Assembly: GCA_009692265.1 (NCBI GenBank)
Contig: SHZM01000009.1
Span: forward strand, 1 to 64,000
Source: Gammaproteobacteria bacterium
Lineage (GTDB): Bacteria > Pseudomonadota > Gammaproteobacteria > Ga0077536
Length of the DNA stretch: 64,000 nt
Reading direction: 5' to 3'
The notes below the pieces were generated by a model, which saw only the letters and a list, made by a program, of their open reading frames with translations, was not told the DNA's origin and did not search any database. The translations under genes and the position numbers were made by a program. This document shows, one piece after another, positions 418 to 44,033 of this stretch (position 1 is the first letter of the stretch; each line of letters begins with the position of its first letter).

Positions 418-852
418 CTATGGCGCTGTCGTGGGCTTCCACTCGCTTGCCCGCTTTTGCGCTTCGGCGACTTGGGTGGGAGTCATCTTCGCGGTAACGA
501 TATCGCGGTTGTGAGTTGCGTTTTCGCGCGTTTCCTTTTCTGTCGCCCGTGCTGCTGAAAGGTTGTACCACTTGTGCGCTTCGACATAGTCCTGCGGCAC
601 GCTTTGGCCGTCGCGGTACATGACGCCGAGGTTGGATTGGGCGTCGGCCGCGTTGACCGCCGGCGTCGAAGCGGAGGCTTGCGCCATGTTGTTAGTCGAC
701 TTTTTCAAGACCCGTCGCGGCGCGGCGCGCAAGTCATGAGCCTCTGCCCCAGCCAGAATGAGCTCGAAGCCAGCGGCCGCGTGCTGGGCACTACCCAACG
801 GAATGGGCCAGTCCACTGTAATTAAGAGCCAGGCCGAGGTGCTCGCGCGCAA
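418..852 (-). CDS. Sel1-repeat (TPR-like) protein, possibly N-terminally shorter than the ORF
   Basis: Translation contains DAQSNLGVMYRDGQSVPQDYVEAHKWYNLSA, a typical Sel1 repeat; the start is uncertain. Confidence 0.45.
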   Translation of the reverse strand: MRASTSAWLLITVDWPIPLGSAQHAAAGFELILAGAEAHDLRAAPRRVLKKSTNNMAQASASTPAVNAADAQSNLGVMYRDGQSVPQDYVEAHKWYNLSAARATEKETRENATHNRDIVTAKMTPTQVAEAQKRASEWKPTTAP

Positions 853-1157
853 CTTCCAAAATCTAAAAAATACCCCCCCGGGCTAGACGTTTTGAAAAGG
901 CATGGGGGCCTTTGCCAAATTCAGGATTTGACCGAGTGGATTGGTATGCAGGTGGAGTGCGGGACTCCTAAATGGAATTTGGGGGGAGGGGGTGTTGCGG
1001 AGACGCGATGCCGACTGCGTTGTGCGGGGAGAGTTGTGTGGGGTGATTGTCGAGTCGAAGCCAAGTTACTAGGGGGCGTCCAGTGATTTTAAGATGGTAA
1101 GTGGGTTGGTATGTGAAAACCATAAATCATACTAAGTCATTGTATTTATTTAATGTG

Positions 1158-1254
1158 TGGCGGAAGAGGTAGGAGTCGAACCCACCGAACCTGCAATTAG
1201 CAGGATCCACCGGATTTGAAGTCCGGGCACCCCACCGGGAGATGTCGCTCTTCC
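1158..1254 (-). tRNA. selC: tRNA-Sec (selenocysteine tRNA), anticodon UCA, 97 nt
   Basis: Reverse complement reads GGAAGAGCG...GGACTTCAAATCCGG...GGTTCGACTCCTACCTCTTCCGCCA with a long variable arm and the ACTTCAAAT anticodon loop. It is near-identical in blocks to E. coli tRNA-Sec and lies 36 bp downstream of selB on the same strand. Confidence 0.93.
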
Positions 1255-1289
1255 GGGGCGAATCGTAACCGATTAGCTGGCCAGGGGGA

Positions 1290-3272
1290 TCACGTCGATG
1301 CCCCGAAGATATCGGCGACCTTGCGCCTGAGCTTGCGGACTTGGCCTTGACGCATCGTGAGTCCGATTCGGTCGAAATACTCCAGTACTTCGATTGTCAC
1401 GTTTCGCCCGACTTTACTGCGCTCGCGAAACGCGGCGACGGTGAATGAGTCGCCTTGTTCCGCGCCGACTTGTTCGGCCACGGTCGCGAGGCGATAGAGG
1501 GCCGACGGTAAGTAGAAGCGGTACTTGCTGACCTTGATCAGAACGCCGTTATGCGCGGCACGCTCCAGGAACGGCAACAGAATTTGAATCGTAATCTTGA
1601 GCGGCTCGAGCATGTCATGCGCGGCTGGCGCTTGCAGTCCGTGGTGTTCGAGCAGGCTGCGGACGCGCGGTAGCAGGGCGGCGTCCATCGGTGACAATTG
1701 GCCGCTGTGGCCGGCGAGATGCAGTAAGCCGGCGGTCCGGCGTAAAGTGCCTTGCTGTATCAAGTGGACGATTGCCACGCGCATCAGCGACGCGCTCAAG
1801 GTGAGGCGTTGCCGCAGCGCCGCGTCGTTTAGCCCTGCCTGCGCCGGAAATTCCTGGTGATGACTTGTCACCGCAGTGAGAGTCCCGTCAATGATTTCGG
1901 TCCAGCGCGCCGGGGTGAGCGCCAACACGGCACCATTCGCCAGAGCGATTCGTTCGATCGGAATTGCGCGGGTTAAAGCTTCGATTTCATCCGTAGTGAG
2001 ATCCCACACGCGACAAAACCACCGAAAGTCGACACCGTCCGGTTGTTGTGCCAACAACGACGCCAAAGCGGTAGTGGTTTGCGTGGTCGTCAACGCCGCT
2101 AAGGATTGGGCGCGTTTGCTCCGCGAGGTGCTGCGGATTGCGGGACAGGGGTCGAGAATCGTACCGCCGCCCAAGGTGCGGGTTGCGGCTTGATCACGCA
2201 GCACGAAACGATCGCCATGAACCGCGCAGGCGGGTGCTTCGAGTACGAGCATCGCATACCCCTGTGCACCGGGCGCGAGGCCGCGATCACCCAGCAAGCT
2301 CACCCGACCAGGCAAATCGGCGGCCCCAAGATGCACATGCACTGGAGTGCGATCCTGGAGCGCCTTCGCTTCGCTCGCGAGCAAGTGGAGTTGAACACCC
2401 AGGCGGTTCGCACCGCCGCTGAGTGCGGGATCGATTAACCAATCGCCGCGATGGATTTCGACGCGGCGGAGATCGTTGCTGGCAATGTTAATCCCGCAGC
2501 GTTCGCCGGCGCCTGCGCGGGTGACCGCTTGGTTTTGCGCGTGGATCGAACGCACCCGTACTTCGATCCCCGAAGTGGCGAGGAGCAAGCGGTCATCGAC
2601 TGCCACCATGCCCGAATACGCGGTACCGGTTACCACGCGGCCGGCGCCACCGAGGATGAAACTGCGATCGATCGCAAGGCGAAAGTGTCCGCGTTCGGAG
2701 CGCGCCCGCAATTTTCGGGCCGCACTGATTAGCAAGCCGCGGAGTTCCGCCACACCAACACCCGCCGGGGTCGCAAGCGGTACCACGTTCGCCGCAGCCA
2801 ACGAGGTAGTCGCGAGCAAGGCATGGATTTCTTCTCGCACGTTAGTGAGGCGCTCAGGCGAGACGCGATCAATCTTCGTCAAGGCAACCGCGCCCTGCGT
2901 AATCCCGAGCAGTTCGAGAATCGCGAGATGCTCGCGAGTTTGTGGCATCGGACCGTCGTCGGCGGCGATCACGAGTAACGCGAAATCGATACCGGCGACT
3001 CCGGCGAGCATGTTACGCACGAAGCGCTCATGGCCGGGGACATCGATAAAGCCGATGACGTATTCTGCGTCGGCATCATTAATAGTGTGATACGCGAAGC
3101 CAAGATCAATCGTCATCCCGCGGGCTTGTTCTTCGGGCAGGCGATCGGTATCCACGCCCGTTAGCGCTTTAACCAGTAATGTCTTGCCGTGATCGACGTG
3201 TCCGGCGGTGGCAATTATCACGGCGGCAACACGCCGAGCTGGGCGATGAACTCGCGGGGATCTTCGAGGCAA
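1290..3272 (-). CDS. selB: selenocysteine-specific translation elongation factor SelB
   Basis: 660 aa with the GTPase G1 motif AGHVDHGKT near the N-terminus and a long C-terminal winged-helix extension. It sits between selA and tRNA-Sec. The true start is probably downstream of the ORF-track start, which overlaps selA by 55 nt. Confidence 0.88.
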
Positions 3273-4702
3273 CGCAGATCAAACACCAAGGCACCCTGGT
3301 GAATGCGCCCGATCACCGGCATCGGCAACCCGCGAAAGCGAGCCGCCAGTGTTTCGACCGCGCGACTTGAAACGCGCGCGGTGAGGGGGCGCAGGCGTAC
3401 GCCACAGCTCGGCAGTTGCTCCACTGGCAATGCACCGCTTCCAATTTGACTCTTACACGCGACGAGGTCGATCTCCACATTGCTGCGGAGCGCGGTTTGG
3501 AGCGGCGCGAGCACCTCGCGAGCGGTCGCTTCGATCTCGGCTATCGGTCGCGTGAGTAGGCGCAAGGCCGGGATTACTTTTACCGCGCGTGCGGGATCCG
3601 CATACAGTGGTAATACCGCCCCAAGCGACGCCAAGGTGAGTTTATCCACGCGCAAGGCACGGGTCATCGGATTTTTTTTGAGCTTTTTGATCAGATCAGC
3701 GCGGCCCGCGATGATTCCGGCCTGTGGCCCACCCAGCAATTTATCGCCACTGAACATGACGAGATCCGCGCCGTCGCGGATCGCCTCCTGCACCGTCGGT
3801 TCGCGCGGTAACCCAAAGCGTTCGAAATCAAGCAACGTACCGCTGCCGAGATCGACGACAAAGGGGATCTGCGATTTTCGCGCAAGCGCGGCAAGTTCGG
3901 ATTCCGCGACCGCCGCCGTGAACCCTTCGATACGATAATTGCTGGTGTGGATTTTCATGATGAGGCCGGTGCGAGCATCGATTGCGCCTTCGTAATCACG
4001 CAAGTGCACTCGGTTAGTGGTACCGACTTCGCGCATCAGCGAACCGGCGGCGGCCATGACATCCGGGATCCGAAACGAACCGCCGATCTCAACTAATTCC
4101 CCGCGCGAGACGATCACGCCACGCCTTCGTGCCAAGGTATTGAGCACCAGCATAACCGCGGCGGCATTGTTGTTCACGACCGTCGCGGCTTCGGCGCCGG
4201 TTAGTCGCTGCAGCCAGCTTGCCACGTGGTCATCCCGGTCGCCGCGTTTGCCGGCTTCTAGCGAGTATTCAAGATTCGTAGCCTGGGTCGCCACTGCGGC
4301 GATTGCCTTCAGCGCGGCTTCAGGCAATGGTGCACGACCAAGGTTGGTGTGGAGCACTGTCCCCGTGAGATTGAACACCGGGATCAAGCTCGGTTTAGTG
4401 AGCGATCGCAAGTGCTTGGCAGCGGCCACGGTGAGAGACTCCGAGACTGCTTCCACCGAGGATGCCGCGAGGCCGGCTAATGCCTCGCTGCGATAGCGGG
4501 CGGTCGCCGCGCGTAAGGCGGCAACTACCGGCTCGCGTCCATGCCGATGGATTAGAGCCAGCGTGTCAGCGCGCTGCAGTAACCGATCAATCGAGGGGAT
4601 CTGAAATTTAGGCTCGGTCATCGGGGCTCTGCGCACGGCAACGAAGGAACATGGTGGCGCGCCTTGTGTGGAGTTAGGCCGCATTATATTCTCCAGGCTC
4701 AA
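3218..4702 (-). CDS. selA: L-seryl-tRNA(Sec) selenium transferase SelA (start probably at about 4621)
   Basis: Translation contains FSGDKLLGGPQAGIIAG, the PLP-lysine region of selenocysteine synthase, and is about 465-494 aa long. It sits immediately upstream of selB. The MTEPKFQIPSIDRLL start at about 4621 is more plausible than the ORF-track start. Confidence 0.88.
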   Translation of the reverse strand: MSLENIMRPNSTQGAPPCSFVAVRRAPMTEPKFQIPSIDRLLQRADTLALIHRHGREPVVAALRAATARYRSEALAGLAASSVEAVSESLTVAAAKHLRSLTKPSLIPVFNLTGTVLHTNLGRAPLPEAALKAIAAVATQATNLEYSLEAGKRGDRDDHVASWLQRLTGAEAATVVNNNAAAVMLVLNTLARRRGVIVSRGELVEIGGSFRIPDVMAAAGSLMREVGTTNRVHLRDYEGAIDARTGLIMKIHTSNYRIEGFTAAVAESELAALARKSQIPFVVDLGSGTLLDFERFGLPREPTVQEAIRDGADLVMFSGDKLLGGPQAGIIAGRADLIKKLKKNPMTRALRVDKLTLASLGAVLPLYADPARAVKVIPALRLLTRPIAEIEATAREVLAPLQTALRSNVEIDLVACKSQIGSGALPVEQLPSCGVRLRPLTARVSSRAVETLAARFRGLPMPVIGRIHQGALVFDLRCLEDPREFIAQLGVLPP

Positions 4703-4721
4703 TCATTAAACGAGTACGGAG

Positions 4722-5306
4722 GTGGCAGTGTCGCGGATCCCCTTAGTCGAGCCCGATGGCGCATCGCCCGAGGTCAAGGCAGCTTACAAACAATTCGAAG
4801 AAATCGGTTTTCCGATCATGAACGTCATGAAGATGTTCGCGAACAATGGCAAGGTGCTGCAGGGCTTTGTGCAGATCGCGCAGGCGCTTTACGTTGCGCC
4901 GCGGATCTCACCACGATATCGCGAGCTAGCGTATCTGCGAGCCTCGCAGGTCAATTCCTGTCATTACTGAATTCCCACCCATGTGATGCTCGGTCTGAGT
5001 GTCGGCTTGACGAAGGCAGAAATGTCGATGATGGGCGATGCGGAGCATTGCGAGACCTTTGATGCCAAGGACCGTCTCGTTCTGCGGTATTCAGAAACGG
5101 TCACGCGCGAGAATCGTGTCGACGACGCGTTGTATGCCGAACTGGCAGTAAATTTCACGCAAGAAGAATTGGTCGATCTCGCGTTGACCGCCGCGTTCTC
5201 ATCGTTCGTGAATCGAATCCATGCGACCTTTCGCACGGATCTGGATGAATCCACGATCGCGCAAGTCGGAGACGCAGTCACCTGCGCGCTACCCCCGCGA
5301 CGTTAA
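4722..5306 (+). CDS. AhpD-core / carboxymuconolactone decarboxylase-family selenoprotein (peroxidase-related), in-frame UGA (Sec) at 4968-4970
   Basis: ORFs 4722..4970 and 4983..5306 are in the same frame and separated only by TGA. The read-through translation is ...RELAYLRASQVNSCHY-U-IPTHVMLG..., matching the AhpD core motif E-X11-C-X-(H/Y)-C-X3-H with the second Cys replaced by Sec. It is divergent from the selA-selB-selC cluster. The start is GTG at 4722 or 4728. Confidence 0.8.
4985..5003 (+). promoter_or_regulatory. candidate bacterial SECIS hairpin (stem GAUGCUC / GAGUGUC, loop GGUCU)
   Basis: A 7-bp stem with two G-U pairs starts 15 nt after the UGA. The apical loop GGUCU puts G-U at +26/+27 from the UGA, resembling the E. 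coli fdhF SECIS loop AGGUCU. Confidence 0.5.
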
Positions 5307-5409
5307 ACGTCCGCGCCTGTCGAGCCGAATAATTGCTTCGGATCGACGGCAGCTCCGCGCGCGGCCGGTCGTGTAGACTGGTGACCTTCCCAACGCCTAG
5401 GAGAAAGCG

Positions 5410-7110
5410 ATGTTTTGGTTGATCCTCACCCTTCTCGGCGTCCTCATGGCGGCACTTCCACAGGTGTTTCCGCCGCGAATCCCACCTGCCGTAACCCGCA
5501 TCGCGGGCATTGCACTCGCGGTGTTAGCCTTCAGCGCGACGTCTTTTATCGTCATTGATTCAAACTCCGTCGGCCATCTAAAGCGGGTGTATTTCGGCAA
5601 CGCAATGCCGCCGGGGCGTGTAATCGCGATGCGCGGCGAGAACGGCCCGCAAGCCGAAGTATTGCCACCAGGCATGAACCTGCGGCCCTTTCTGAATGTG
5701 TTCTACGATATCGATGAATTCCCGGTTACGGATATTCCGTCCGGCAGCTATGGCTTGTTGACGGCGCGCGATGGACGCCCACTCAGCGACGGCGAATTCC
5801 TGGCCAAGGGGTGGCGTGAGGAAGACTTCGAAAAGATGCTCGATGCGGAATATTTTCTTAAGCATAACGGTTCGCGCGGACCGCAGCTCAGTGTTCTTAA
5901 GCCAGGGAAGTACCGCATCAACTCGTATCTATTCGATGTGAAGATTCTGCCTTCGATTGAAGTTCATGCCGGTGAAGTCGCGGTGATCAAATCCAATGTG
6001 CGTGAAAGCGATGATTGTCCGTTGCCGCAGCTGCACGGAGATAGCGGCAGCGAGGGCGGGTTGGTCGTGCCAATCGTCAAGAAAGGCTGCATTGGTGTGT
6101 GGGCCGAAGCGCTGCTGCCGAATCGGTATTATCTCAATGCGCTGGCCTATTCGGCGACGATTATTCCGACTCGCGTCCAGACGTGGACCTATAAAGGCGG
6201 CTACACCCGGCGGCAAATCGATTTAGTCGTCGGTCAGGACGGTAAAATCGAACAGCGCGAAGCACAAGCCACCGAGGTACCAGTGCCGGAAGACGCGGCC
6301 GATTCGGCGGTGGGGCTTACCGTGGAAGGTTGGCGCGTGCCATTGGAATTGCGCGCGTTGGTCCAAGTGGAACCGGAAGATGCGCCACGAGTTGTCGCGT
6401 CGGTCGGCACGTTAGCCGATGTCGAAGATAAAATTATCACCCCCGCAATCCGCAGCGTGATCCGCAATGAAACTGGACGCCCCCCTGATCCCGAGCATGG
6501 TATCGAGGGGACTCGGGTGCTGGATCTCATTACAAAACGTGCCGAGCTGGAGCGCACGATCGAGCGCGCGATCATCCCCGAAGGCCGTAAGGCCGGGGTG
6601 ACAATCAAGGAAGTCCGGTTTTCCGATCCGGTAATTCCGCCCGAGTTGTTACTCGCGGGACAACGTAAGCAACTCGCCGAGCAATTGCGCAATACCTACA
6701 TCGAGGAGAAAAAGGCGCAAGAGGAGCGCATCGACACCGAAAAAGCGCGGGCCACCGCAGATCAGCAAGGAGAGCTTGTACGCGCCGAAATCGCGGTACA
6801 GGTGGCCAACCAAACGAAGGCCAAGTTGCAGCTGGAAGGCGAGGGCGAAAAGCTACGCTTGACCGAAATCGCGTTGGGGCAAAAAGCGCAGACCGAGGTA
6901 TTGGGTCAGGAACGGGTCTTGCAGCTTGCGATGTTAAAAGAAATCTTAGCCGCCGCGTCCATCAATCCAGACCTGGTCAAAGTACCCACCGTGCTCGTGC
7001 AAGGCAGTGACGCGAATAATTTGACCGGCGCGGCGGCGGTGTTGGGATCCAGCAATATTGTGCAGTTGCTGCAACAGGCGCGATCCAGTGAGGCCGCTGG
7101 TAAGCAGTAA
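5410..7110 (+). CDS. SPFH/band-7 (flotillin-like) membrane protein with C-terminal coiled coil
   Basis: N-terminal transmembrane helices, a central beta-rich domain, and a long Glu/Lys/Ala/Gln-rich coiled-coil segment (EEKKAQEERIDTEKARATADQQGEL...). AGGAGAAAG ribosome-binding site precedes the ATG. Confidence 0.4.
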   Translation: MFWLILTLLGVLMAALPQVFPPRIPPAVTRIAGIALAVLAFSATSFIVIDSNSVGHLKRVYFGNAMPPGRVIAMRGENGPQAEVLPPGMNLRPFLNVFYDIDEFPVTDIPSGSYGLLTARDGRPLSDGEFLAKGWREEDFEKMLDAEYFLKHNGSRGPQLSVLKPGKYRINSYLFDVKILPSIEVHAGEVAVIKSNVRESDDCPLPQLHGDSGSEGGLVVPIVKKGCIGVWAEALLPNRYYLNALAYSATIIPTRVQTWTYKGGYTRRQIDLVVGQDGKIEQREAQATEVPVPEDAADSAVGLTVEGWRVPLELRALVQVEPEDAPRVVASVGTLADVEDKIITPAIRSVIRNETGRPPDPEHGIEGTRVLDLITKRAELERTIERAIIPEGRKAGVTIKEVRFSDPVIPPELLLAGQRKQLAEQLRNTYIEEKKAQEERIDTEKARATADQQGELVRAEIAVQVANQTKAKLQLEGEGEKLRLTEIALGQKAQTEVLGQERVLQLAMLKEILAAASINPDLVKVPTVLVQGSDANNLTGAAAVLGSSNIVQLLQQARSSEAAGKQ

Positions 7111-11333: not shown

Positions 11334-14300
11334 TTACACACGTCGAAGTTTCTTTCGTTGCAATAAAAAAAACGCAGCTGGGATTACAAATAAGGACAGC
11401 AGCGGTGCCGTCACCATACCGCCAACCATCGGTGCGGCGATACGGCGCATGATTTCAGAGCCCGTTCCAGTCCCGAGCAGGATCGGCAGGAGACCGGCCA
11501 GGATCACCGCCGCCGTCATTGCCTTCGGACGCACGCGGCTGACGGCACCTTCGCGGATCGCCGCTTTCAACTGTTCGATGTCGATGGTGATTCCGCTCGC
11601 CACCTGTCGTTCTAGTGCCTGTCGCAAGTACCACAGCATTACGATTCCAAACTCGGCGGCGACCCCGGTCAACGCGATAAACCCAACTCCCGTTGCCACT
11701 GACCTCTGATAGTCGAGGCTATATAACAACCACAGTCCACCCACCGACGCGCACGGAATCGTCAGCATGATTACCAACGCTTCGGAGACCCGCGCGAAAA
11801 CCACCAACAGCAACACAAAGATGATCGCGATCACGGCGGGTGCGACCCATTGCAGTCGCGCGGTGGCGCGCGCCAGGTATTCATATTGGCCCGAATAAGT
11901 CACTGTCACTCCGACCGGCAGCGGAACTTGCGCCGCGATCCCGGTCCGAAGATCGCGCACGACCCGTCCGAGATCTGAACTATTCACGTCGACATACACC
12001 CATCCCGAGAGTCGCGCGTTCTCGCTTCTGATCTGCGGTGGCCCGTCGTTGATTTTCACCGTTGCCACCGCGCCCAAAGTCAGGAGCTGCCCGTTGGAGG
12101 CGACAAACGGCAATTCGCGCAATCGCGTGAGCGAGTCTCGCAATTCGCGTGGGTAGCGTACGTTGATCGGAAATCGCGCGAGGCCTTCAACGGTCTGGTC
12201 GATGTTCTCACCGCCGACCGCCGCCGCGATAATGGTCTGGATCTCCGCGACAGTCAGACCGTACTGCGCGATCTGCTGGCGATCGATTTCAATATCGAGA
12301 TAGCGCCCGCCGGTGAGTCGTTCGGCCAATGCCGAACTCACCCCGGGCGTGACCTTTGCGATCTTTTCGATCGCACGCGCGGTGCGTTCGATGGTGACGG
12401 GATCAGGTCCGGATATTTTCACCCCAATCGGGCTTTTGATCCCGGTGGCGAGCATGTCGATCCGATTACGGATAGGCGGCACCCATAAGTTCGACAGACC
12501 CGGCACCTGCACGCGGCGATCCAACTCCGCGATGAGCGCGTCAAGGGTCAAGCCCGGGCGCCAGGCCTCGCGCGGTTTCAGTTTGATCGTCGTTTCGAAC
12601 ATTTCGAGTGGCGCGGGATCGGTCGCGGTCTCGGCGCGTCCGGCTTTGCCAAACACATGTTCCACTTCGGGCATTGCTTTGATCATTCGATCGGTGCGTT
12701 GCAACAACTCGCTTGCCTTGGCGGCCGAAAGACCCGGTAGCGCGGTCGGCATGTACAGAAGATCGCCCTCATCGAGCGCCGGCATGAATTCAGATCCCAG
12801 GTGACGCCAGGGATAGATCGCCGATAGCAACGCGAGCCCCGCCAGCAGCAAAGTGGTTCGCGGCCACCGCAGAACTGCATTCAGCAATGGCAGGTACAGG
12901 GCTACCAGCAATACGCTCAGCGGATTGTCTGCTTCGCGCGGAATGCGGCCACGGATCACATAGCCCATGAGCACCGGCGCAAGGGTGACCGACAAGCACG
13001 CGGCTGCCGCCATCGCATACGTTTTGGTATACGCCAGAGGTCCAAACAAGCGACCTTCCTGCGCCACGAGCGCGAATATCGGAGTAAACGAGATGGTAAT
13101 CAACAGCAGGCTAATAAATATTGCCGGCCCCACCTCGCTCGCCGCGTCGCCGATCACCCGCCAGCGGGTAGCGCTATCTAAGGTGTTCGCGGGATGCGCG
13201 TGCTGCCAGTGCTCTAAATGCTTGTGGGCGTTCTCGAGCATGACAATCACCGCGTCGACCATCGCGCCCACCGCGATCGCGATGCCACCCAGCGACATGA
13301 TATTCGCGGTGATCCCCTGATACTTCATCACGATGAAGGCCGCGAGCACGCTAAGCGGCAGGAGGATGATCGCAACCAACGCCGAGCGCAGATGAAACAG
13401 AAAAATCACGGTCACCGCCATCACAACTGCGAACTCCTCGATGAGCTTATTGGTTAGGTTCGCGACCGCGCGGTCGATCAACTCCGAGCGATCATAGACC
13501 GGCACGATCTCCACGCCTTCCGGTAGACCTGACGTGAGTTCCGCTAGTTTCTTGCGTACAGCTGCGATCGTGGCGCGCGCGTTACCCCCGGCGCGCAGCA
13601 ACACCACCGCGCCGACCGTTTCACCTTCGCCGTCGAGCTCCGCGATCCCTCGGCGCATTTCCGGCCCGCGTTGAATGATCGCGACATCGGCCAGGACAAT
13701 CGGGATCCCATTGCTGGCGGTGCCCAGGGGCACCGCGCGGAGATCAGCGATGCCGCGCAGATAAGTGCTCGCGCGAACCATGTATTCCGCTTCGGCGATT
13801 TCGATCACGCCGCCGCCAGTTTCGCGATTAGCCGCCTGAATCGCCGCAATCACGCGCGCAATCGGCATTCCATAGGACGCGAGCTTCATGGGATCGAGCA
13901 GCACCTGATACTGCTGCACCATGCCGCCGATCGTCGCGACTTCGGCGACCTCGGGCAGCCCCGACAATTCGAATTTTAAAAACCAGTCTTGCAGCGCGCG
14001 TAGCTGTCCAAGATCATGACGACCCGAGCGATCGACCAGCGCATATTGATAAATCCAGCCAACACCCGTCGCGTCCGGTCCCAGGTTCGATTTCGCCGTA
14101 GGCGGCAGTCGTGACTGGACTTGATTCAAGTACTCCAGCACGCGCGAGCGTGCCCAGTACAAGTCCGTCCCGTCTTCGAACAGCACATAGACAAACGAAT
14201 CGCCGTAGAACGAATACCCACGGACCGACTTCGCGCCAGGCACTGACAACATCGTGGTGGTCAGCGGGTAGGTCACCTGATTTTCGACAATTTGGGGCGC

Positions 14301-14468
14301 CTGTCCCGGCAAGCTCGTGCGAATGATTACCTGCACATCGGAGAGATCCGGCAGCGCGTCGATCGGCGTTGAGCGAACGGCCCAGATCCCCCAGGCCGCG
14401 AGGAAAAGGCTCAACGTGAGCACGATCGCTCGTTGCTCAATCGATGCTCGAATAAGGCGCGCGATCAT
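11334..14468 (-). CDS. cusA: Cu(I)/Ag(I) efflux RND permease CusA (HME-RND)
   Basis: 1044 aa. Long stretches are near-identical to E. coli CusA, for example [27 protein letters not shown] and [20 protein letters not shown]...[28 protein letters not shown]. Confidence 0.85.
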
Positions 14469-15703
14469 GGTGGGGTCTCCACATCAACCTGGCCGCGTAA
14501 ACTCGCTTCGGAATCGAACAGAAACTGACCGGACGCGACGATCCGATCACCGGCCTGTAGACCGGTACTCACTTCGATCTCGCTAGCGCCCTCATGACCG
14601 AGTTGAATCGAGACCGCGCGAAAGTGTCCGGCACTTTCTTCGCGCATGACCAAGGTGCGGGTGCCGGTACGAATAACCGCCTCGCTCGGCACCAGCACGG
14701 CGGGCTCAGAGTTGGTCGACGCAATCATCACGCGCGCTGACATGCCTGCCTTGAGCCGTCGCTCGCGGTTGGGCAGTTCGATCCGCACCCGCAAAGTGCG
14801 GGTAGCAGGATCGGTACTCGCAAGGATCGCCGCAATCGTGCCGTTGAGGGGTGTCGCCGGAAACGCCGCCAGTTCGGCGCGAACCACTTGTCCGACCTCC
14901 ACGGCTTCGGCGGCCGTTTCGGGCACTGCTATCTCCAGCCACATCGGATCAAGCCCAGTGATCGTGGCGAGGGTCACCCCAGCGCCCAGGCTCATGCCCG
15001 CGCGCACCTCCAGCGTGGTCAGTACCCCCGTGAGGGGTGCGCCAATAGTAAGAACAGGTTGTGTTTTCCCCGTGGCGACGACCGTGTCGATCAGTGCAGA
15101 CGGCATGCCGAGTCGCTGCAAACGACTACGCGCCGCGGCACTTAAACTTGAATCACCGAGGGCATACAGCGCGAGTAATTCTTGTTGAGCCGCCAGCCAT
15201 TCCGGCACCAGCAGATCGGCCAGTGGGGCGCCTTCGGCGATCTCATCACCCGGTGCGCGCGCGTATACCCTCTCGACGTAACCGGCAGTGCGAGTTTGCA
15301 CGATCGCCACGTCGCGGGCGTTGAACGCCAGCTGACCGGAGGCGATGATTTCGCGCGACAAGTTTCCCGTACGTACGGTCACCACGCGCACCCCAAGATT
15401 TTGCGCCACGACGGGGTCGATCCGAAGATTTCCCTTCTCGGCGCTATCCTGCTCGTCGTCTGCGTACTTCGGCACCAGCGCCATGTCCATGAACGGCGAT
15501 TTTCCTGGGCGATCAAAACGCTGGGTGGGCACCATTGGGTCGTACCAGTACAGCACTGTACGCGCGTTGTGCGGGGTCGGTGTCGCCTCGAATAATTTCG
15601 CACTCGAGTGCCACGCGCTCCAGTACCCGATACCGATCCCAAGGATGAGCGCTACGCCGATCGCAACACCAAGCCAGGAGTTACTCGTGCGCATCGTGTT
15701 CAC
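14465..15703 (-). CDS. cusB: efflux RND periplasmic adaptor (CusB/CzcB family)
   Basis: 412 aa with an N-terminal membrane anchor and a membrane-fusion-protein beta-barrel/lipoyl fold. It is translationally coupled to cusA by a 4-nt overlap. Confidence 0.75.
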
Positions 15704-16964
15704 CTCCCTCGTAGGTGTAATACAAGTCAGCGGCTGAAAGAGTCACCGCAGCGGTTGCGTCGAGCAGCTCTAAACGGGTTTCGATCAAGGTGCCGCGGGT
15801 GTCCAGTAGGGTCTCGAGATCAATACTTCCGGCAGCATAGGCGGCAGCGGCCAGTGTCGCGCGGCGCTTTGCCAACGGCAGCCGTTGGGTTTGATAACGC
15901 ACCAAGCGCTGCCGATCGCGCGCATGCCGCACCAAGCCACGTTCAAGCGCGGCCGCGTGGTCGCGCAACATTTGGGCGCGCTCGGCTTCGAGTGCGGCTA
16001 AGTCCTGGAGACGGGCAGCAATGAGCGGATCCTGGCGGTGCTCCGCAAACAATGGCAGGTCGATCGAGACTTCGGCCGAGATCATGTCCCCATACTCGGG
16101 GCCCCGATGCGCGTAGGCGACTTCGAAATCCCAATCGGGGCGCTTATCCGCCGCGGCCGCGGTCATCGCAGCTCGCGCTTCGTCGAGGCGGCTTGCGAAT
16201 TCCAGCAGCTCAGGATGCTGCTGCACATGCGCGCGCAGGTGCGCAGGCTCCACTTCGATGTGCGGCGGCGAGACGCTCAACGGGAGTTCCGCCGCGGCGC
16301 CGATCAGGCGTGCGAGTTCAACGCGCGCTTGGTCGCGTTCGGCCGCCAAGGCTTCATGCCGATCGGCTAGTTCCAAGGTGTCGATTTCTGGCGCGAGGGC
16401 AGCCACTGGATCAAGCGCTCCGGCCGCCACCTGACCCGGCACGGTATGCGAGGCCCGCGTATTCTCCTCGCTCAAGTCGCGCAACGCCGCGAGCTTGCGC
16501 TCGGCGTAGTACACCTCTAACCAGGCCAGTGCCGCATCGCGCCGCAACTTCAGCCGTGTAGTCAACGCCGTCGCGTTCGCGGTGCCGATTTTCGCTTCGG
16601 CGCCGTGTCGCCGTGCCTCCCGTTTCGCACGATTAGTCCACGCCTGCTGAATACCGACCTTCTGCATGGTCATGAAGTCGCGACTCAACGAGAAACTATC
16701 GCGACCGGTAATCGGGAGATTGTCGAGGCCAACGACGAGTTTCGGATCCGGCAGCGCGTCGGCCGGGATCGCCTGCGCGCGTAGCGCCGCGATCCGCGCG
16801 GTGTCGGCCTGTACCGCCGGGGTGTCATGCGTCGCGAGCGAAAGCGCTTGTTCAAACGATAATTGTGCATCTGCCCACGTCGGGGCGAGGGCCAGAAGGC
16901 CCGTGAAGATCCATGCCAACATGGCTGAACTCCCATTGTTCAGCGTGCGCAGCGCGCACCTCAC
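15681..16964 (-). CDS. cusC: outer-membrane efflux protein (CusC/TolC family)
   Basis: 427 aa with a signal peptide and two TolC-type repeat halves rich in coiled coil (Ala/Arg/Leu/Glu). It lies directly upstream of cusB. Confidence 0.7.
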   Translation of the reverse strand: MRCALRTLNNGSSAMLAWIFTGLLALAPTWADAQLSFEQALSLATHDTPAVQADTARIAALRAQAIPADALPDPKLVVGLDNLPITGRDSFSLSRDFMTMQKVGIQQAWTNRAKREARRHGAEAKIGTANATALTTRLKLRRDAALAWLEVYYAERKLAALRDLSEENTRASHTVPGQVAAGALDPVAALAPEIDTLELADRHEALAAERDQARVELARLIGAAAELPLSVSPPHIEVEPAHLRAHVQQHPELLEFASRLDEARAAMTAAAADKRPDWDFEVAYAHRGPEYGDMISAEVSIDLPLFAEHRQDPLIAARLQDLAALEAERAQMLRDHAAALERGLVRHARDRQRLVRYQTQRLPLAKRRATLAAAAYAAGSIDLETLLDTRGTLIETRLELLDATAAVTLSAADLYYTYEGGEHDAHE

Positions 16965-19522: not shown

Positions 19523-20560
19523 TTAGCAACAGGCCCCACCCGTAGTCACCGCGTCTTGTGCGAACGGGATGCTGCTCCCGCACCCTTCGAATAGACCGTA
19601 ATGCCGTTCAAAATTGCCGATGAATTCGAAATGCGGTTTGAAGCGCGTGTCATGCAACATCTTCCAGGTATTCCCGCAGACCGGAAATACGCGGCCGGTT
19701 TCGATGTCGTGGTGCCCATCTAACACGAAGCGATGCGGGTGCGCGGCGATGGTGCCGCGGTAGATCACGGCCTGGCCGTAATCTTCACAGGCGGTTTCGA
19801 GTCCCACCAGCTTGAATAAACGGTAGGTCGCCGAATAAAACCGCACCGTGCCAGCGCGTGCTGCGAGCTCAGGATCGGTGATCGTAAGCGGCCGATTGGC
19901 GACCAGGCGCGGATCGGCAAAGCCGTGACGGTGGGCCAAGCGCAGAAAATCATTCCAATACAGCGCGCCCCCCATGCATTCGTTATAGAGCAACGCGTCG
20001 TCGCGCACCTTTGCGGGCACTCGCCGATCGGCATACACATCCGAAAAATAGAATTCTCCACCGGGCTTGAGCAGGTTAAACACTTCGCGCAGCACCGCAT
20101 CTTTGTCCGGCGAGAGATTCACAACGCAGTTCGAGACGATGACATCGATGCTGCCGGCCGGAATGCCGAGCTCGTCCAGGCGTTCGATGAAGCCCTGCTT
20201 GAATTCAACATTGTCGAAACCGAACTGCTCACGGTGATAACTGCGATAGCGCTCGGCGAGGGCCAGTTGTTCGGTGGTCATGTCGACCCCGATGACATGC
20301 CCCCCCGCACCGACTAGTTGGGCTAACACATAGACGTCGCGCCCGGCGCCACAACCGAGGTCGAGTACGCGCATCCCTTCGAGCAGGGATGGGCAGACCA
20401 ACCCGCAGCCGTAGTAGCGGGCGAGCACTTCGGGGTGCACGCGTTTAAGCAGGGTTTTGAACCAACCTGGAACCTCCTCGGGATCGCAGCACGCGGAGGT
20501 TTTTAGATCGACCGAGCTTTGCAGGGTTTGACCGTAGTATTCTTGAATCGATTCGTGCAT
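19523..20560 (-). CDS. arsM: arsenite S-adenosylmethionine methyltransferase (ArsM-like)
   Basis: SAM-binding VLDLGCGAGRD plus the conserved ArsM cysteines: ACC and YYGCG near the N-terminus, SNCVVNL and ECMGGALYW, and a C-terminal CC. Confidence 0.7.
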   Translation of the reverse strand: MHESIQEYYGQTLQSSVDLKTSACCDPEEVPGWFKTLLKRVHPEVLARYYGCGLVCPSLLEGMRVLDLGCGAGRDVYVLAQLVGAGGHVIGVDMTTEQLALAERYRSYHREQFGFDNVEFKQGFIERLDELGIPAGSIDVIVSNCVVNLSPDKDAVLREVFNLLKPGGEFYFSDVYADRRVPAKVRDDALLYNECMGGALYWNDFLRLAHRHGFADPRLVANRPLTITDPELAARAGTVRFYSATYRLFKLVGLETACEDYGQAVIYRGTIAAHPHRFVLDGHHDIETGRVFPVCGNTWKMLHDTRFKPHFEFIGNFERHYGLFEGCGSSIPFAQDAVTTGGACC

Positions 20561-23285: not shown

Positions 23286-23397
23286 CGGCGCGACTCGAAG
23301 CGGTCATTTTTTTGAGAGCAGAACGCGACCACCGTAAATCCGTACAACGCATGCTGTATTGGATGCACGATCAACCTTGGATAAGCAGGAGGAACCT

Positions 23398-24177
23398 ATG
23401 ATCCGTTTCGAATTCGCTTTACGCCGTAAACCCGGCATGACGCGCGCGGAATTTCAGCAGTACTGGCGCGTGGTACACGGCCCGCTCGTCGCCAAGCACG
23501 CGAGTACCTTGAATATTCATCGCTACGTCCAACTTCACACCCTTGACGATCCGATAAACGACGCGCTGGCCGAGGCACGCGGCGGCATGGAGCCAGCCTA
23601 CGATGGAGTGGCCGAGTTGTGGTGGAAGACGCCAGAGGAACTTGAGGCGTTTAGCAGCGCGGCCGGCGAGGCCGCGGGTCGGGAATTGTTGGAAGACGAG
23701 AAGAAGTTCATCGACCTGCCCAATTCCCCGCTGTGGTTCGCCTACGAGTATCCGCAGGTGAATCCGTCCGAGGACATCATCGCGCGCGAGCACGGACCGC
23801 TGGTCAAGCTGTTCTTCTGCTTACGCCAATTGTCGACCCAGTCGCTCGAAGCGGCCCAACTTTATTGGCGGACTAACCATGGCCCGCTAATTCGCGGCGT
23901 AGCTCCTGGCTTTCGGATGCAGCGCTACCTGCAGGTCCATTACTGCGAAGACATGCCCGTCATCAGCGCGGTTCGCGCGGCACGCGGGACTGTTACAGCG
24001 CCCTACGCCGGGCACGCAGAGGCGTGGTTCAACCGCGCCGATCTGATGACCATGGCCACTATTCCCGAAGCGAATCGCGCGATGGAAATTGCGATCGCGG
24101 ATGAACGGAAATTCATCGATTTCCGCCGCTCCGCGATGTGGATCGGCAAGGAGCATACCTTCATCGATAGACGATGA
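23398..24177 (+). CDS. tandem EthD-domain protein (dimeric alpha/beta barrel)
   Basis: Two repeats of about 125 aa each begin with the R-KPGM--EEF--YW---HGPLV signature. AGGAGG ribosome-binding site precedes the ATG at 23398. Confidence 0.6.
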   Translation: MIRFEFALRRKPGMTRAEFQQYWRVVHGPLVAKHASTLNIHRYVQLHTLDDPINDALAEARGGMEPAYDGVAELWWKTPEELEAFSSAAGEAAGRELLEDEKKFIDLPNSPLWFAYEYPQVNPSEDIIAREHGPLVKLFFCLRQLSTQSLEAAQLYWRTNHGPLIRGVAPGFRMQRYLQVHYCEDMPVISAVRAARGTVTAPYAGHAEAWFNRADLMTMATIPEANRAMEIAIADERKFIDFRRSAMWIGKEHTFIDRR

Positions 24178-24223
24178 TCGAAAACGTTGCCGAATTACCC
24201 GCGCGCCAAGAGGAGTACACAAC

Positions 24224-24565
24224 ATGATCAAGCTAATTATTAATGTCGTTCGAAAGCCGGGGATGTCGCACGAGGAGTTTGCGGACTACTGGCGGAATAA
24301 ACATGGCCCGCTCGTGAAAAGCGTCACTGAATTCACCCGCCACGTCCGAAAATACGTGCAATGCCATTTAACAAGTAGTGGCATCCCGCTGGGTACCGTC
24401 GGCGTGTTCGATGGCATAGCCGAACTTTGGTTCGATAGCGTGAAAGACATGGAGCAGGCGTTCAGCGAACCCCGGTATATGGAGATTGTGCGACCAGATG
24501 AATTGAAGTTTGTCGATCTCGCGAAATGCGTATCGCTGGTCACGGAAGAGGTTTCGATGATTTAG
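24224..24565 (+). CDS. EthD-domain protein (single domain)
   Basis: MIKLIINVVRKPGMSHEEFADYWRNKHGPLV has the same signature as the upstream tandem protein. AGGAG ribosome-binding site precedes the ATG. Confidence 0.6.
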   Translation: MIKLIINVVRKPGMSHEEFADYWRNKHGPLVKSVTEFTRHVRKYVQCHLTSSGIPLGTVGVFDGIAELWFDSVKDMEQAFSEPRYMEIVRPDELKFVDLAKCVSLVTEEVSMI

Positions 24566-30562: not shown

Positions 30563-33500
30563 TCACTGCTCCGCAGCCGCGCGCGGCACCCGAAACCACG
30601 CGGCATACAGCGCCGGCAGGAACAGGAGGGTCAGTACCGTGGCGGCGATCAGTCCACCCATGATCGCGACGGCCATCGGGCCGAAGAAGACGCTGCCGGA
30701 CAATGGGATCATCGCGAGCACGGCCGCGAGCGAGGTTAACACGATTGGCCTGAAGCGGCGCACGGTCGCTTCGACGACGGCGTCGAACGGTGCGCGTCCC
30801 TGCGCAAGATCCTGGCGGATCTGATCGATGAGAATGACGCTGTTGCGCATGATCATGCCGAACAGTGCAATCGTGCCAAGCATCGCGATAAAGCCGAACG
30901 GCTGGCGGAACAGTAGCAGGAAGACGGCCACGCCGATGATGCCAAGGGGGGCGGTGAGAAACACCATCGCGGTTTGCGAGAAACTCTTCAGTTGCACCAT
31001 CAGTACGGTTAACACCACCAGAATCAAAAATGGCATGCCGGCCATCACGCTCGCTTGGGCTTTGCCCGAGTCGGCGACCGTGCCGCCGAGTTCGATGCGA
31101 TAGCCGCGCGGTAACGCGGCTTCGATCCGCGCCAGCGCCGGCGCCAGCATGGCGACGACTTCCGGCGGTTGCATGCCGGAATAGATGTCCGCGCGAACGG
31201 TGATCGTCGGGACGTGGTTGCGTCGCCATAGAATGCCGTCTTCGAAGCGGTACTCGAGCTTGGCAACCTGCGCCAACGTGATATTGGTGCCGCTCGCGGT
31301 CGGGATCGCGAGACTGCCCAGCAGTTCGATTCGTTGGCGCTCGTGTGGCGGGCCACGCAGCACGATGTCGATCAGTTCATTGTCTTCGCGAAAAGTCGTC
31401 GGCATTACGCCATTGGTCGCCGCGGCCACTGCCATTGCGACCATTTGCGAGCTTACGCCAAGGCTGCGCGCGCGATCCTGATCGAGCACAATGCGCAGCA
31501 CCTTTGACTGCTCGGCGGTATCAAGGTGAATGCCGGCCGCATGGGGATTGTCACGCAGGGCCGCAGCTACCTTCTCGGCTTCGAGGCGGATGCCGTCGCG
31601 GTCTGGACCGGACACGCGGTACTGCAATACATAACCCACCGGCGGTCCGTTCTCGATCCGATTGACCCGCCAGCGCAGGTCCGGGAACGTGGTTGGAAAC
31701 AGTGCGATGAGATGCGCGCGCACCTGCTCGCGCGCGACGAAATCACGCGTGTTGATCACGAATTGCGCGAAACTCTGGGCGGGGAGTTGTTGGTCGAGCG
31801 GCAGGATGAAGCGTGGCGCGCCGCTGCCGATGTAGGCGGCATAACTGTCGACGCCTTCTAGTTTGGCCAGAATCTCTTCCAGCCGCGCGGCGGCCAGGTC
31901 GGTCTGCGCGATTGAGGCACCTTCCGGGAGCTTCAAATCGACCAGCAGTTCGAGCCTGACCGAGTCCGGAAAGAATTGCTGCGGTACTTTACTGAACAGC
32001 ACCAAGCTCGCCGCGAACACCGCTGCCGTGGTCACGATCGTCAGCCACCGATACCTTACGCAGAACTGCACGAGCGCGCGAAAGCGGTTATAGAAAGACG
32101 TGTGATAGACCGCGTGTTCATCATGCGCGACGCCGTCCGAGGACAAGCCCTTCTCAGGCAGGAGCGCATAGCCGAGCAGCGGCACGAACACCACCGCCGC
32201 GACCCAGGACAGTAGCAGGGCAATAACGGTCACTTGAAAGATCGCGACGGTGTATTCGCCGACCATGCTTTTAGCGATCACGATCGGCAGGAAACCAGCC
32301 GCGGTGATGAGGGTGCCGGACAGCATCGGAAAGGCTGTCGAGGTGTAGGCAAAACTGGCGGCTTGAAAGCGATCGAAGCCCTCTTCGAGCTTCACCGCCA
32401 TCATCTCCACGGCAATGATGGCGTCGTCGACCAACAGCCCGAGCGCAATCACGAGCGCCCCGAGTGAAGTTTTGTGCAAGCCGATATGCAAGTAATGCAT
32501 CGCCGCGAAAGTCATGGCCAGCACCAGCGGAATGGACAGCGCGACGACCAGACCGGTGCGCACACCGAGTGAAAGAAAACACACCAGCAACACGATGACC
32601 ACGGCTGCCGCCAGCGCCATCACGAACTCAGTAACCGAATCACGCACCGCGAGTGGCTGGTCGGCCAGGCGCGCCAAGCTCATGCCGAGTGGCACATCCT
32701 GATTCAGGCGTTCGAACTCGAGGTCGAGACGCTGGCCAAGCTGGATGATGTCGCCGCCCTTCTCCATCGACACCGCAATGCCGATCGCAGGTTGCCCATT
32801 GAAACGCAGACGCGGCGCCGGCGGATCCTGATAGCCGCGATAGACAGTGGCAATGTCGCCAAGCCGGAACGTGCGGCCGGCATATTCGATCGGCAGGTTT
32901 TCCACGTCCTCGACCGTGGTGAAGCTGCCCGAGACGCGCGCGTAAATCTTGTCGGTGCTGGTGTCGAAGGAGCCCGCAGTGACGATGCCGTTTTGCTCAG
33001 CGAGAACGTCCATGAGCACCTGCGCGGGGATGCCAAGCTCGGCGCGCCGCGTATTGGCGATGTCGACGAAAATTCTTTCTTCCTGCAGACCGATGAAATT
33101 GACCTTGGCGACATCGGCAATCCGGAGCAGGCGGTCGCGCACGCGCTCGGCGTATTCCTTGAGCTCGGCATAGCTGAAATCCGCGCCTTGCAGCGCGTAA
33201 ATATTGCCGAAGGTATCGGCGAACTCGTCATTGAACGAGGGGCCGATGACACCCGCGGGCAGCGTGTGCCGGATGTCAGAGACTTTTTTGCGTGCCTGGT
33301 AGTAGTTCTCCGGCATCGCGGCGGCCGGTCCATCCTCGCGAAAGATGATAAAAATCTGGGATTCGCCTGGACGCGAGTAGGAGCGCAGGTAGTCGAGCGC
33401 ATTGAGTTCCTGCAGCTTTTCCTCAATTTTTTCGGTAACCAAGCGGTCGACTTCATCGGCCGTCGCGCCTGGCCAGAGCGTGCGCACTACCATGATTCGA

Positions 33501-33634
33501 AAAGTGAAAGGCGGATCCTCGGACTGGCCGAGGTGAAAATAGGCCCACACGCCACTCAAGCCCAACAGCAACATGAAATAGCTTACAAGCGCCCGATTAG
33601 CGAGCGCCCAAGCACTCAGGTTGAAGCGTGACAT
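30563..33634 (-). CDS. multidrug efflux RND permease (AcrB/HAE1 family)
   Basis: 1023 aa with 12 predicted transmembrane segments and two large periplasmic loops; the N-terminus is AcrB-like. Confidence 0.85.
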   Translation of the reverse strand: MSRFNLSAWALANRALVSYFMLLLGLSGVWAYFHLGQSEDPPFTFRIMVVRTLWPGATADEVDRLVTEKIEEKLQELNALDYLRSYSRPGESQIFIIFREDGPAAAMPENYYQARKKVSDIRHTLPAGVIGPSFNDEFADTFGNIYALQGADFSYAELKEYAERVRDRLLRIADVAKVNFIGLQEERIFVDIANTRRAELGIPAQVLMDVLAEQNGIVTAGSFDTSTDKIYARVSGSFTTVEDVENLPIEYAGRTFRLGDIATVYRGYQDPPAPRLRFNGQPAIGIAVSMEKGGDIIQLGQRLDLEFERLNQDVPLGMSLARLADQPLAVRDSVTEFVMALAAAVVIVLLVCFLSLGVRTGLVVALSIPLVLAMTFAAMHYLHIGLHKTSLGALVIALGLLVDDAIIAVEMMAVKLEEGFDRFQAASFAYTSTAFPMLSGTLITAAGFLPIVIAKSMVGEYTVAIFQVTVIALLLSWVAAVVFVPLLGYALLPEKGLSSDGVAHDEHAVYHTSFYNRFRALVQFCVRYRWLTIVTTAAVFAASLVLFSKVPQQFFPDSVRLELLVDLKLPEGASIAQTDLAAARLEEILAKLEGVDSYAAYIGSGAPRFILPLDQQLPAQSFAQFVINTRDFVAREQVRAHLIALFPTTFPDLRWRVNRIENGPPVGYVLQYRVSGPDRDGIRLEAEKVAAALRDNPHAAGIHLDTAEQSKVLRIVLDQDRARSLGVSSQMVAMAVAAATNGVMPTTFREDNELIDIVLRGPPHERQRIELLGSLAIPTASGTNITLAQVAKLEYRFEDGILWRRNHVPTITVRADIYSGMQPPEVVAMLAPALARIEAALPRGYRIELGGTVADSGKAQASVMAGMPFLILVVLTVLMVQLKSFSQTAMVFLTAPLGIIGVAVFLLLFRQPFGFIAMLGTIALFGMIMRNSVILIDQIRQDLAQGRAPFDAVVEATVRRFRPIVLTSLAAVLAMIPLSGSVFFGPMAVAIMGGLIAATVLTLLFLPALYAAWFRVPRAAAEQ

Positions 33635-33645
33635 CGCACCAAGGT

Positions 33646-34744: not shown

Positions 34745-34915
34745 CACGACTGGTTTGTTCTCGGAAATTTTGCGAGAAGTTTCGACGACCGTGCTGCGTG
34801 GTTGTTTCCGCCCGTTGAAAAAGGGGGGGTGGGGATTCGCGGTGCGCCGTATAGGATAGGTCCCCCTCGGTCCCCCGTTTTCAAAGGGGCAAGATGTCGA
34901 GAATAAATTTGCCCT
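34745..34915 (-). repeat. MITE-like repeat element, copy B (inverted relative to copy A)
   Basis: Reverse complement matches 9888..10052 over nearly the full length. It is flanked by a perfect 11-bp direct repeat gatgccgatag (34734-34744 and 34916-34926), and has terminal inverted repeats tttgttctcg and cgagaataaa. Confidence 0.75.
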
Positions 34916-35017
34916 GATGCCGATAGGGCATGGCCTTCTTCAATCCGAATAGGAACGGTATGGTAATGGAATTCGGCGACGAATAGCCAAACCCGACCGC
35001 GCGCCGAGATACGTGTT

Positions 35018-43521: not shown

Positions 43522-44033
43522 GGGTTGCGAGTCTCTCCGCTCATCGACGAATACGCCCACCACGAGGTCGCAAAATCCGGCAAGGTTGATTTCGCCAACA
43601 CGATCGCACCCGCTTCGCGCAGCTTGCGGATGACCATTGCGTCGGTTTTCGGCTGGTAGTTCGCAAACGCAATGCTGCCGAACGTTGTTGGCAGTTCGCT
43701 GGTCTCAATATTGTCCTTCACGATGAAGGGAATGCCGTGCAAGGGCCCTTGCAACTTCCCAGTCCTTGCGAATGCTTTATCGAGTGCGATTGCCTGTGCG
43801 GTCGCTTGAGGATTAACGCGCACTATTGAATTAAGCCTTGGCCCCTTTTGGTCGAGCGCTTTGATGCGCTGCAGGTAACACTCAACCAGTTCGCGAGCAC
43901 TAATCTTGTGTGCCCGCAAGGCGCGATGAATCCCGCTGATGGTTGTCTCGTCGAGTTCAAACGGTCGAGGGCTTCTGGAGGTGGCCATGATAACTTTCGT
44001 TAGAGTGTGCTGCTCGACCATAGGGCCGACCAA
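43248..44033 (-). pseudogene. amidase (amidase-signature family), C-terminally truncated fragment
   Basis: Amidase-signature sequence GGSSAGTGAAVAANLGAVGLGSDCGGSIRLPAS is present, but the ORF ends about 40 aa later (261 aa versus about 470 expected). No continuation was found in other frames. Confidence 0.6.

Follow-up and report, generated by a model that had tools for sequence, protein, structure and literature searches.

Can a compact set of selenocysteine (Sec) genes near one end of a gammaproteobacterial contig decode UGA, and which protein would it serve? The question arises from 64,000 nucleotides of contig SHZM01000009.1 (positions 1 to 64,000, forward strand; assembly GCA_009692265.1, Gammaproteobacteria bacterium, GTDB lineage Ga0077536), which we call the window throughout. 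Here selA, selB and a gene for tRNA-Sec (selC) lie next to a divergently transcribed gene for an AhpD-like protein that is interrupted by an in-frame TGA. We read the region 1158-5306 as a working bacterial Sec-decoding module together with a local client gene, and put the probability of this reading at roughly 85%. The selA/selB/selC locus is genuine but ordinary, and the AhpD-like redox enzyme is the one selenoprotein gene that it visibly serves. It shows two variations on the textbook module, a tRNA-Sec with a 12-bp helix built from a 7-bp acceptor stem and a 5-bp T-stem (7/5), and an AhpD-like client in the place usually taken by fdhA. Both are of kinds already known, and the locus leaves current understanding unchanged.

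The two protein genes are identified by curated models. SelB scores 424.4 bits against NCBIfam TIGR00475, whose equivalog cut-off is 242.25, and SelA scores 576.6 bits against TIGR00474 (cut-off 267.9). Their Pfam domains are complete, with GTP_EFTU (PF00009), GTP_EFTU_D2 (PF03144), Beta-barrel_SelB (PF25461), SelB-wing_2 (PF09106) and SelB-wing_3 (PF09107) in SelB, and SelA (PF03841) preceded by an N-terminal Se-cys_synth_N domain (PF12390) in SelA. These results bear out the assignments made in an earlier, sequence-only reading of this DNA, which also had the two genes overlap. They do overlap, but by 4 nt and not by the 55 nt suggested by the raw open reading frame (ORF) extents (1290-3272 for selB and 3218-4702 for selA): the selA stop codon occupies 3218-3220 and the GTG start of selB 3219-3221, within the sequence GTGA. 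Read from this GTG, the N-terminus of SelB contains the G1 motif AGHVDHGKT. Two ATG codons could start selA; the one at 4684, with GGAG 6 nt before it, is most likely, and the other is at 4621. Gene calls in public records of identical contigs agree on both proteins (643 aa for SelB, 488 aa for SelA).

The tRNA-Sec gene was called over the same interval by ARAGORN and Rfam, and its UCA anticodon (tca in the gene) and long variable arm are as previously described. It matches RF01852 over the full length of the model (positions 1-91) at 64.2 bits, with a gathering threshold of 47 and an E value of 9e-11. This is the sole Rfam match above gathering in a scan of the whole window, in which ARAGORN likewise finds only one credible tRNA. 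The gene lies downstream of selB on the same strand, as had been proposed, and the gap from the selB stop, given before as 36 bp, counts 35 nt. The 3' end is encoded as GCCA, with G73 as discriminator.

The 8/5 acceptor/T-stem architecture first attributed to this tRNA did not survive a count of its residues. CUCUUCC alone, 7 nt, separates the 5-bp T-stem (GUGGG/CCUAC) from G73; it pairs with G1-G7 and leaves C8 without a partner, so the acceptor stem has 7 bp and the stacked acceptor and T helix 12 bp, not 13. The alignment to RF01852 needs a gap in the 3' acceptor strand. Minimum free energy favours a 6/6 fold and covariation a 7/5 fold, which gives 12 bp either way. In the latter fold, the acceptor stem is followed by a 3-nt linker with an extra C at position 7a, a 6-bp D-stem with a 5-nt loop, a 6-bp anticodon stem with a bulged U43a, and a long variable arm whose 8-position stem has one U.U mismatch and closes with a 5-nt loop.

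Comparison with other genes supports this fold. We extracted 48 tRNA-Sec genes from 80 selA-containing GTDB loci, which with the window makes 49; the 3' acceptor strand is 8 nt long in 38 of them and 7 nt long in nine others and the window. In an alignment of eight sequences of the 7-nt class, the 7/5 cloverleaf pairs 98.8% of cells, and 13 pairs, the seventh of the acceptor stem and pairs of the T-stem among them, have changed on both sides. None of 500 shuffles matches the observed values, and sliding the partners by 1-3 columns lowers pairing to 42-55%. All seven modelled pairs of the variable arm covary. The anticodon stem pairs CCCGGA with UCCGG(U)G; its closing pair (columns 28-47) is C-G in all eight sequences, with column 46 unpaired. 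The same 7/5 fold is present in loci L001, L002, L004, L012 and L085 of our collection. A crude neighbour-joining tree of SelA places the window and its four closest relatives in one clade that has 7/5 tRNAs throughout. The remaining tRNAs of this form turn up at scattered places in the tree, suggesting that it arose several times. Two alphaproteobacterial loci with the 7-nt strand, L021 and L047, have a U49.C65 mismatch that leaves four T-stem pairs, and their fold is less clear than that of the window tRNA.

The window tRNA belongs to a known minor class, the 12-bp 7/5 tRNAs with an extra base 7a and a bulged U43a. Santesmasses, Mariotti & Guigo (2017, PMC5330540) described 47 bacterial tRNA-Sec genes with a 12-bp helix, among them 7/5 forms with the extra base 7a and the bulge at 43a that adjoin selAB in Gamma- and Alphaproteobacteria; the bulge is common but not universal in the 7a-type class. 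Mukai et al. mention 12-bp tRNA-Sec species too. Compared by published description with the 'column D' type (PMC5330540), the window tRNA shows no detected structural difference: it has the same seven residues from T-stem to G73, the extra base in the acceptor/D linker, the bulge at 43a, G73 followed by CCA, a gammaproteobacterial host and selA-selB as neighbour. What it adds to that type is a further lineage, in uncultured freshwater or soil Gammaproteobacteria. Set against E. coli selC, the window tRNA likewise has a UCA anticodon, G73, a 6-bp D-stem and a long variable arm. The two also share the GGAAGA...UCUUCCGCCA ends and the UUCGACUCC T-loop region. In contrast to the 8/5, 13-bp E. coli molecule, the window tRNA has no partner base for position 8, a 7-bp acceptor stem and a 12-bp helix; its D-loop has 5 nt where that of E. 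coli has 4, and its anticodon stem is bulged.

The AhpD-like gene with an in-frame TGA that had been seen next to selA is indeed there (Table 1). Its GTG start follows a GGAGG 5 nt upstream, and its single in-frame TGA stands in the context N-S-C-H-Y-U-I-P-T-H, in place of the second Cys of the family's CxxC(x3)H motif. With Cys substituted for the stop, the protein scores 49.9 bits (threshold 23) against the Pfam carboxymuconolactone decarboxylase (CMD) family, PF02627. It also aligns end to end with TIGR01926, 'peroxidase-related enzyme' (residues 2-168 with positions 1-171 of 178), at 57.7 bits, which is under the cut-off of 81.8. In the solved CMD relative 3c1l, Cys stands at the aligned position (NHCYYCLTAH against NSCHY-U-IPTH). 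The TGA is kept at the same codon in 17 of 17 orthologous loci, five from GTDB (L001, L002, L004, L006 and L012) and 12 from metagenome contigs, whose products are 51-73% identical to the window protein. A search of 5.8 billion proteins returned 61 related clusters, each a fragment of 105-160 residues lying only before or only after the stop, and no close Cys form among them. In public annotation the window gene is two ORFs of 80 and 106 aa, each a 'hypothetical protein', and a database fragment identical to it at 100% carries the locus tag EXR86_03540. The family is represented in public databases in the same way, only by pieces of ~80 and ~106 aa on either side of the Sec codon, under the names 'hypothetical protein' or 'alkylhydroperoxidase family enzyme'. 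We flag this splitting at the UGA as an annotation error. Together, the conserved TGA, the split clusters and the constraint described next are evidence that this UGA encodes Sec.

A hairpin resembling a Sec insertion sequence (SECIS) element begins 9 nt downstream of the UGA. RNAfold predicts its apical part alike in five of six orthologues and pairs L006 differently. Among the six genome orthologues, 9 of the 11 invariant-residue codons from U+4 to U+16 are also invariant in nucleotide sequence, compared with 4 of 73 elsewhere in the gene. Because the stem itself is invariant there is no covariation, and the SECIS call rests on suppressed synonymous change, not on thermodynamics. The position and loop type of the hairpin are as expected for a bacterial SECIS element. 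Like the fdhF SECIS of E. coli, the putative element is a hairpin that follows the UGA within a few nucleotides and has an apical loop of the GGUCU type; its loop G/U lies ~25-27 nt from the U of UGA, where fdhF has G23/U24. Its stem sequence differs from that of fdhF, and the bulged U17 that matters for E. coli SelB was not identified in it. Binding by SelB is a prediction.

AhpD-like and CMD-like selenoproteins with a CxxU motif are among the known prokaryotic families (PMC13188914). With the TIGR01926-type and PF02627-type families from the marine metagenome studies of Zhang & Gladyshev, which that list includes, the window protein shares the CMD fold, Sec at the second position of CxxC(x3)H and a SECIS hairpin directly after the UGA; it differs in scoring under the curated cut-offs, and the close members that we found are all Sec forms.

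Table 1. Features of the Sec locus, in window coordinates
Feature	Coordinates	Strand	Description
selC, tRNA-Sec(UCA)	1158..1254	-	97 nt including G73 and encoded CCA; ARAGORN, Rfam RF01852
-10-like box TACGAT	1262..1267	-	Candidate promoter for selC alone, 7 nt 5' of the mature tRNA
selB	1290..3221	-	Selenocysteine-specific elongation factor, 643 aa; GTG start within the GTGA overlap with the selA stop
selA	3218..4684	-	L-seryl-tRNA(Sec) selenium transferase, 488 aa
AhpD-like/carboxymuconolactone-decarboxylase-family selenoprotein (predicted)	4728..5306	+	192 aa; UGA at 4968-4970; divergent from selA
SECIS-like hairpin	4980..5009	+	Apical 7-bp stem 4985-4991/4997-5003, loop GGUCU 4992-4996

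The module recurs outside the window. The Sec-form AhpD-like gene, divergent from selA and followed on the other side by selB, is found in five GTDB metagenome-assembled genomes labelled Gammaproteobacteria (L001, L002, L004, L006 and L012) and in five metagenome contigs (L081, L082, L084, L085 and L086). Other neighbours in the window, namely a Sel1-repeat protein, an SPFH protein, an ATP-binding cassette (ABC) transporter, a metallo-beta-lactamase and a major facilitator superfamily (MFS) transporter, are absent from those loci. Judged by this gene order, the AhpD-like gene, selA and selB, with selC in some loci, are passed on together within one clade of uncultured Gammaproteobacteria. The earlier suggestion of a local tie between the Sec trait and the AhpD-like gene holds up: ten other loci share the arrangement, and the UGA and the SECIS-like hairpin are conserved. 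Five longer metagenome contigs (L087-L089, L091 and L092) carry the AhpD-like gene without an adjoining selA or selB, so the linkage is a feature of the clade and not of the family.

Away from selA the AhpD-like gene has no consistent partner. A MaoC-like hydratase gene is nearby in L087 and L091. In L088 and L089 (3327-6567), the AhpD-like gene is divergent from a class-V aminotransferase gene, which is followed by genes for a NUBPL/Mrp-type Fe-S ATPase and a small ferredoxin-like ORF. Class-V aminotransferases have the cysteine desulfurase/selenocysteine lyase fold, and this context could hint at sulfur or selenium trafficking, or could be coincidence. Two of the genomes with the full arrangement, L001 and L012, were deposited as 'Klebsiella pneumoniae' or 'Klebsiella sp.', labels that look unreliable; their SelA proteins are only 59-64% identical to that of the window, and their gene context resembles that of uncultured freshwater Gammaproteobacteria.

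Proteobacterial selA-selB-selC clusters stand beside the single selenoprotein gene of the organism, usually fdhA, and selD follows an evolutionary course of its own, in many cases alongside the selenouridine trait (Zhang et al. 2006, PMC1794560). The window locus resembles the selABC and fdhA cassette of Alpha-, Beta- and Gammaproteobacteria described there in its compact selABC linked to a single selenoprotein gene, in having selD elsewhere and in flanks that are not conserved between hosts. It differs in its companion, a small AhpD-like protein encoded divergently from selA instead of the alpha subunit of formate dehydrogenase. One might go further and see in the AhpD-like gene, selA, selB and selC a self-contained 'starter cassette', mobile among uncultured Gammaproteobacteria, that sustains the whole Sec-decoding trait for one redox selenoprotein, with a SelB co-evolved for the 12-bp tRNA and a tRNA promoter that might start transcription at or next to the mature 5' end. 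We think this unlikely. If it were true, the cassette would be unlike the usual FdhA- or SelD-anchored Sec trait, its single small selenoprotein would be one with no close Cys-form homologue among the sequences found, and a SelB accepting a 12-bp tRNA would contradict the rule of the eighth acceptor pair derived from E. coli.

Around 50 non-overlapping ORFs covering the 64-kb window were translated and scanned against Pfam, and none has an AIRS (selD), molybdopterin-oxidoreductase (formate dehydrogenase) or glycine/proline-reductase domain. An E. coli SelD sequence used as tblastn query matched nothing in the window and picked up SelD-like genes in 12 unrelated selA loci. These results agree with the previous observation that selD, formate dehydrogenase and glycine reductase are absent from the window. 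A list of 271 in-frame TGA junctions was drawn up as well; among those next to annotated genes or in unannotated gaps, which were translated, none has a redox motif or a coding-like composition that would point to a further selenoprotein gene in the window. An ArsM-like methyltransferase gene and a GST-like gene belong to families with Sec variants, and were set aside as candidates since both are uninterrupted ORFs here.

Together, the parts of the locus would act along the established Sec pathway. The tRNA-Sec would be charged with serine by seryl-tRNA synthetase (SerRS), and SelA would convert Ser-tRNA(Sec) to Sec-tRNA(Sec) with selenophosphate from a SelD encoded outside the window. SelB in its GTP form would bind Sec-tRNA(Sec), while its C-terminal winged-helix domains would bind the SECIS-like hairpin downstream of the UGA at 4968. 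Sec would become residue 81 of the divergently encoded AhpD-like protein, at the second position of its CxxC(x3)H redox motif, and the product, if expressed, is presumably a thiol/selenol-based hydroperoxide or disulfide reductase. Translation of selB is presumably coupled to that of selA through the GTGA overlap, and a separate promoter for selC probably lies immediately before the tRNA, besides any read-through from selB. The parts list, a 12-bp tRNA-Sec with its cognate SelA and SelB and a client SECIS, is complete for testing how SelB and EF-Tu discriminate a tRNA-Sec without an eighth acceptor pair, and its members may serve the engineering of selenoprotein expression. A selABC cassette linked to an AhpD-like enzyme, not to formate dehydrogenase, is also one more case that bears on which proteins keep the Sec trait alive.

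Several results weigh against the reading of the region as a working module. selD, needed for the selenium donor step, is missing from the 64-kb window, an absence that holds for the window and does not extend to the genome, and it does not lie within 10 kb in any of the cassette loci. The AhpD-like protein scores under the curated cut-off of every specific NCBIfam model, including TIGR01926, NF053654 and NF041238; this sets it apart as a separate subfamily and makes its enzymatic activity a superfamily-level guess. The single-sequence fold energy of the hairpin is no better than that of shuffled sequences (z 0.35), and a generic promoter and terminator scan of 800-5500 found no sigma-70-like promoter and only chance-level terminators. 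Finally, the 7-bp acceptor stem lacks the eighth pair that decides between SelB and EF-Tu in E. coli, where the 8-bp stem is the determinant that lets SelB bind and makes EF-Tu reject the tRNA (Baron & Bock 1991, cited in PMC7609411). This difficulty belongs to the whole 12-bp class and not to this locus. An acceptor stem one pair short of the textbook fold, the lack of a visible selD and the public annotation of the AhpD-like gene as two 'hypothetical protein' ORFs of 80 and 106 aa could also be taken as signs of decay, with a tRNA made defective by base loss and an AhpD-like gene truncated at a genuine stop, as two fragments or a pseudogene. We find this hardly credible: the same 7-nt strand and the same TGA recur in independent assemblies at only 54-73% protein identity, the tRNA stems carry compensatory changes, neither selA nor selB is disrupted, the AhpD-like gene keeps its two halves in frame and conserved, and its synonymous sites 3' of the TGA are under RNA-level constraint. 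It is also very improbable, if somewhat less so, that the mature tRNA is 8/5 after all, through an RNase P cut one base further upstream that would let C(-1) pair with G73 and give a 13-bp helix. tRNA-His, with its G-1:C73 pair, offers a parallel; the -1 base can pair with G73 in 9 of 10 tRNA-Sec genes of the 7-nt class (C in seven, U in two), and in L021, L047 and L075 the bases at -2/-1 (GC) are complementary to G73-C74. However, a C or U at -1 is not specific to the class, since the canonical 8/5 genes sampled alongside have one about as often (roughly 80%), and the encoded GCCA is an ordinary 3' end. Such a pair would also cost the molecule its free G73, which is essentially universal in tRNA-Sec and an identity element for SerRS, and the published analysis of the class concludes 7/5 (PMC5330540).

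As to transcription, the sequence-only reading proposed a single selA-selB-selC transcript. The overlap and adjacency of the genes on one strand make this plausible, and selABC operons have been described for the same tRNA class (PMC5330540). The gap between selB and selC is just 35 nt, with no terminator between them in the scan of 800-5500, which also detected no consensus promoter. Yet in related loci selC can be far from selB: the distance is ~45 nt in L001, ~50 nt in L002, ~670 nt in L085, ~940 nt in L004 and ~5.1 kb in L012. The L012 interval contains four unrelated genes, which encode an acyl-CoA synthetase, an alcohol dehydrogenase, a luciferase-like monooxygenase and a short-chain dehydrogenase, and three of the four are on the opposite strand. 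In these five loci and the window alike, TAGCAT, TACATT or TACGAT stands exactly 7 nt upstream of G1, and the bases around this TAnnAT-type box differ between the six sequences. TAnnnT occurs at that offset in only 7 of the 49 tRNA-Sec genes, all seven of the 7-nt class. A box at a fixed offset, whatever the distance to selB, suggests that selC has its own promoter; the box is probably the -10 element of this dedicated promoter, with a predicted start at or very near the mature 5' end. Such a promoter and read-through from selB do not exclude each other. That all three genes form one obligatory transcript, from which the tRNA is freed only by processing of the selAB mRNA, seems to us doubtful, though less so than the mobile cassette considered above.

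The rest of the window encodes two resistance-nodulation-division (RND) efflux systems, MFS and ABC transporters, a DeaD helicase, an ArsM-like methyltransferase, CoA-transferases, a pyruvate dehydrogenase E1-type enzyme, monooxygenases and a two-component system (Pfam). We saw no base-composition anomaly of the Sec module, and no repeat of the tRNA 3' end elsewhere in the window that would mark selC as the integration site of an island; just 1.1 kb of sequence lies beyond the tRNA. A second ARAGORN call at 14497-14593 (-), a 97-nt 'tRNA-???' with a 2-base anticodon, is almost certainly a false positive, as it lies inside a CusB/HlyD-type ORF (14465-15703), has mismatched acceptor pairs and has no Rfam match. 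The ORF of the ArsM-like arsenite methyltransferase (19523-20560, -) scores 180 bits against NF008823, under the cut-off, and ends in ...GGACC; it also matches the NCBIfam models for selenoprotein variants of ArsM under their cut-offs, and is uninterrupted.

Some other genes of the window appear incomplete. An amidase ORF at 43248-44033 (-) matches only positions 1-203 of a 445-position Pfam model and overlaps the 3' end of a convergent TrkA_N-domain ORF (41950-43521, +) by ~270 nt; it looks truncated or like a pseudogene, unless an end of either ORF has been misplaced. The segment 23359-25364 (+) contains three EthD domains, two in 23359-24177 and one in 24089-24565; the ORF after them aligns with no more than the C-terminal half (235-471 of 472) of a Na+/sulfate-symporter model and may be a split or truncated transporter gene. 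Of the two RND systems, the one at 11334-16964 (-) is CusCBA-like, with an AcrB-family pump, a CusB-type adaptor with a heavy-metal-binding domain and an outer-membrane factor, and the second, at 30563-35058 (-), comprises an AcrB-family pump and an HlyD-type adaptor.

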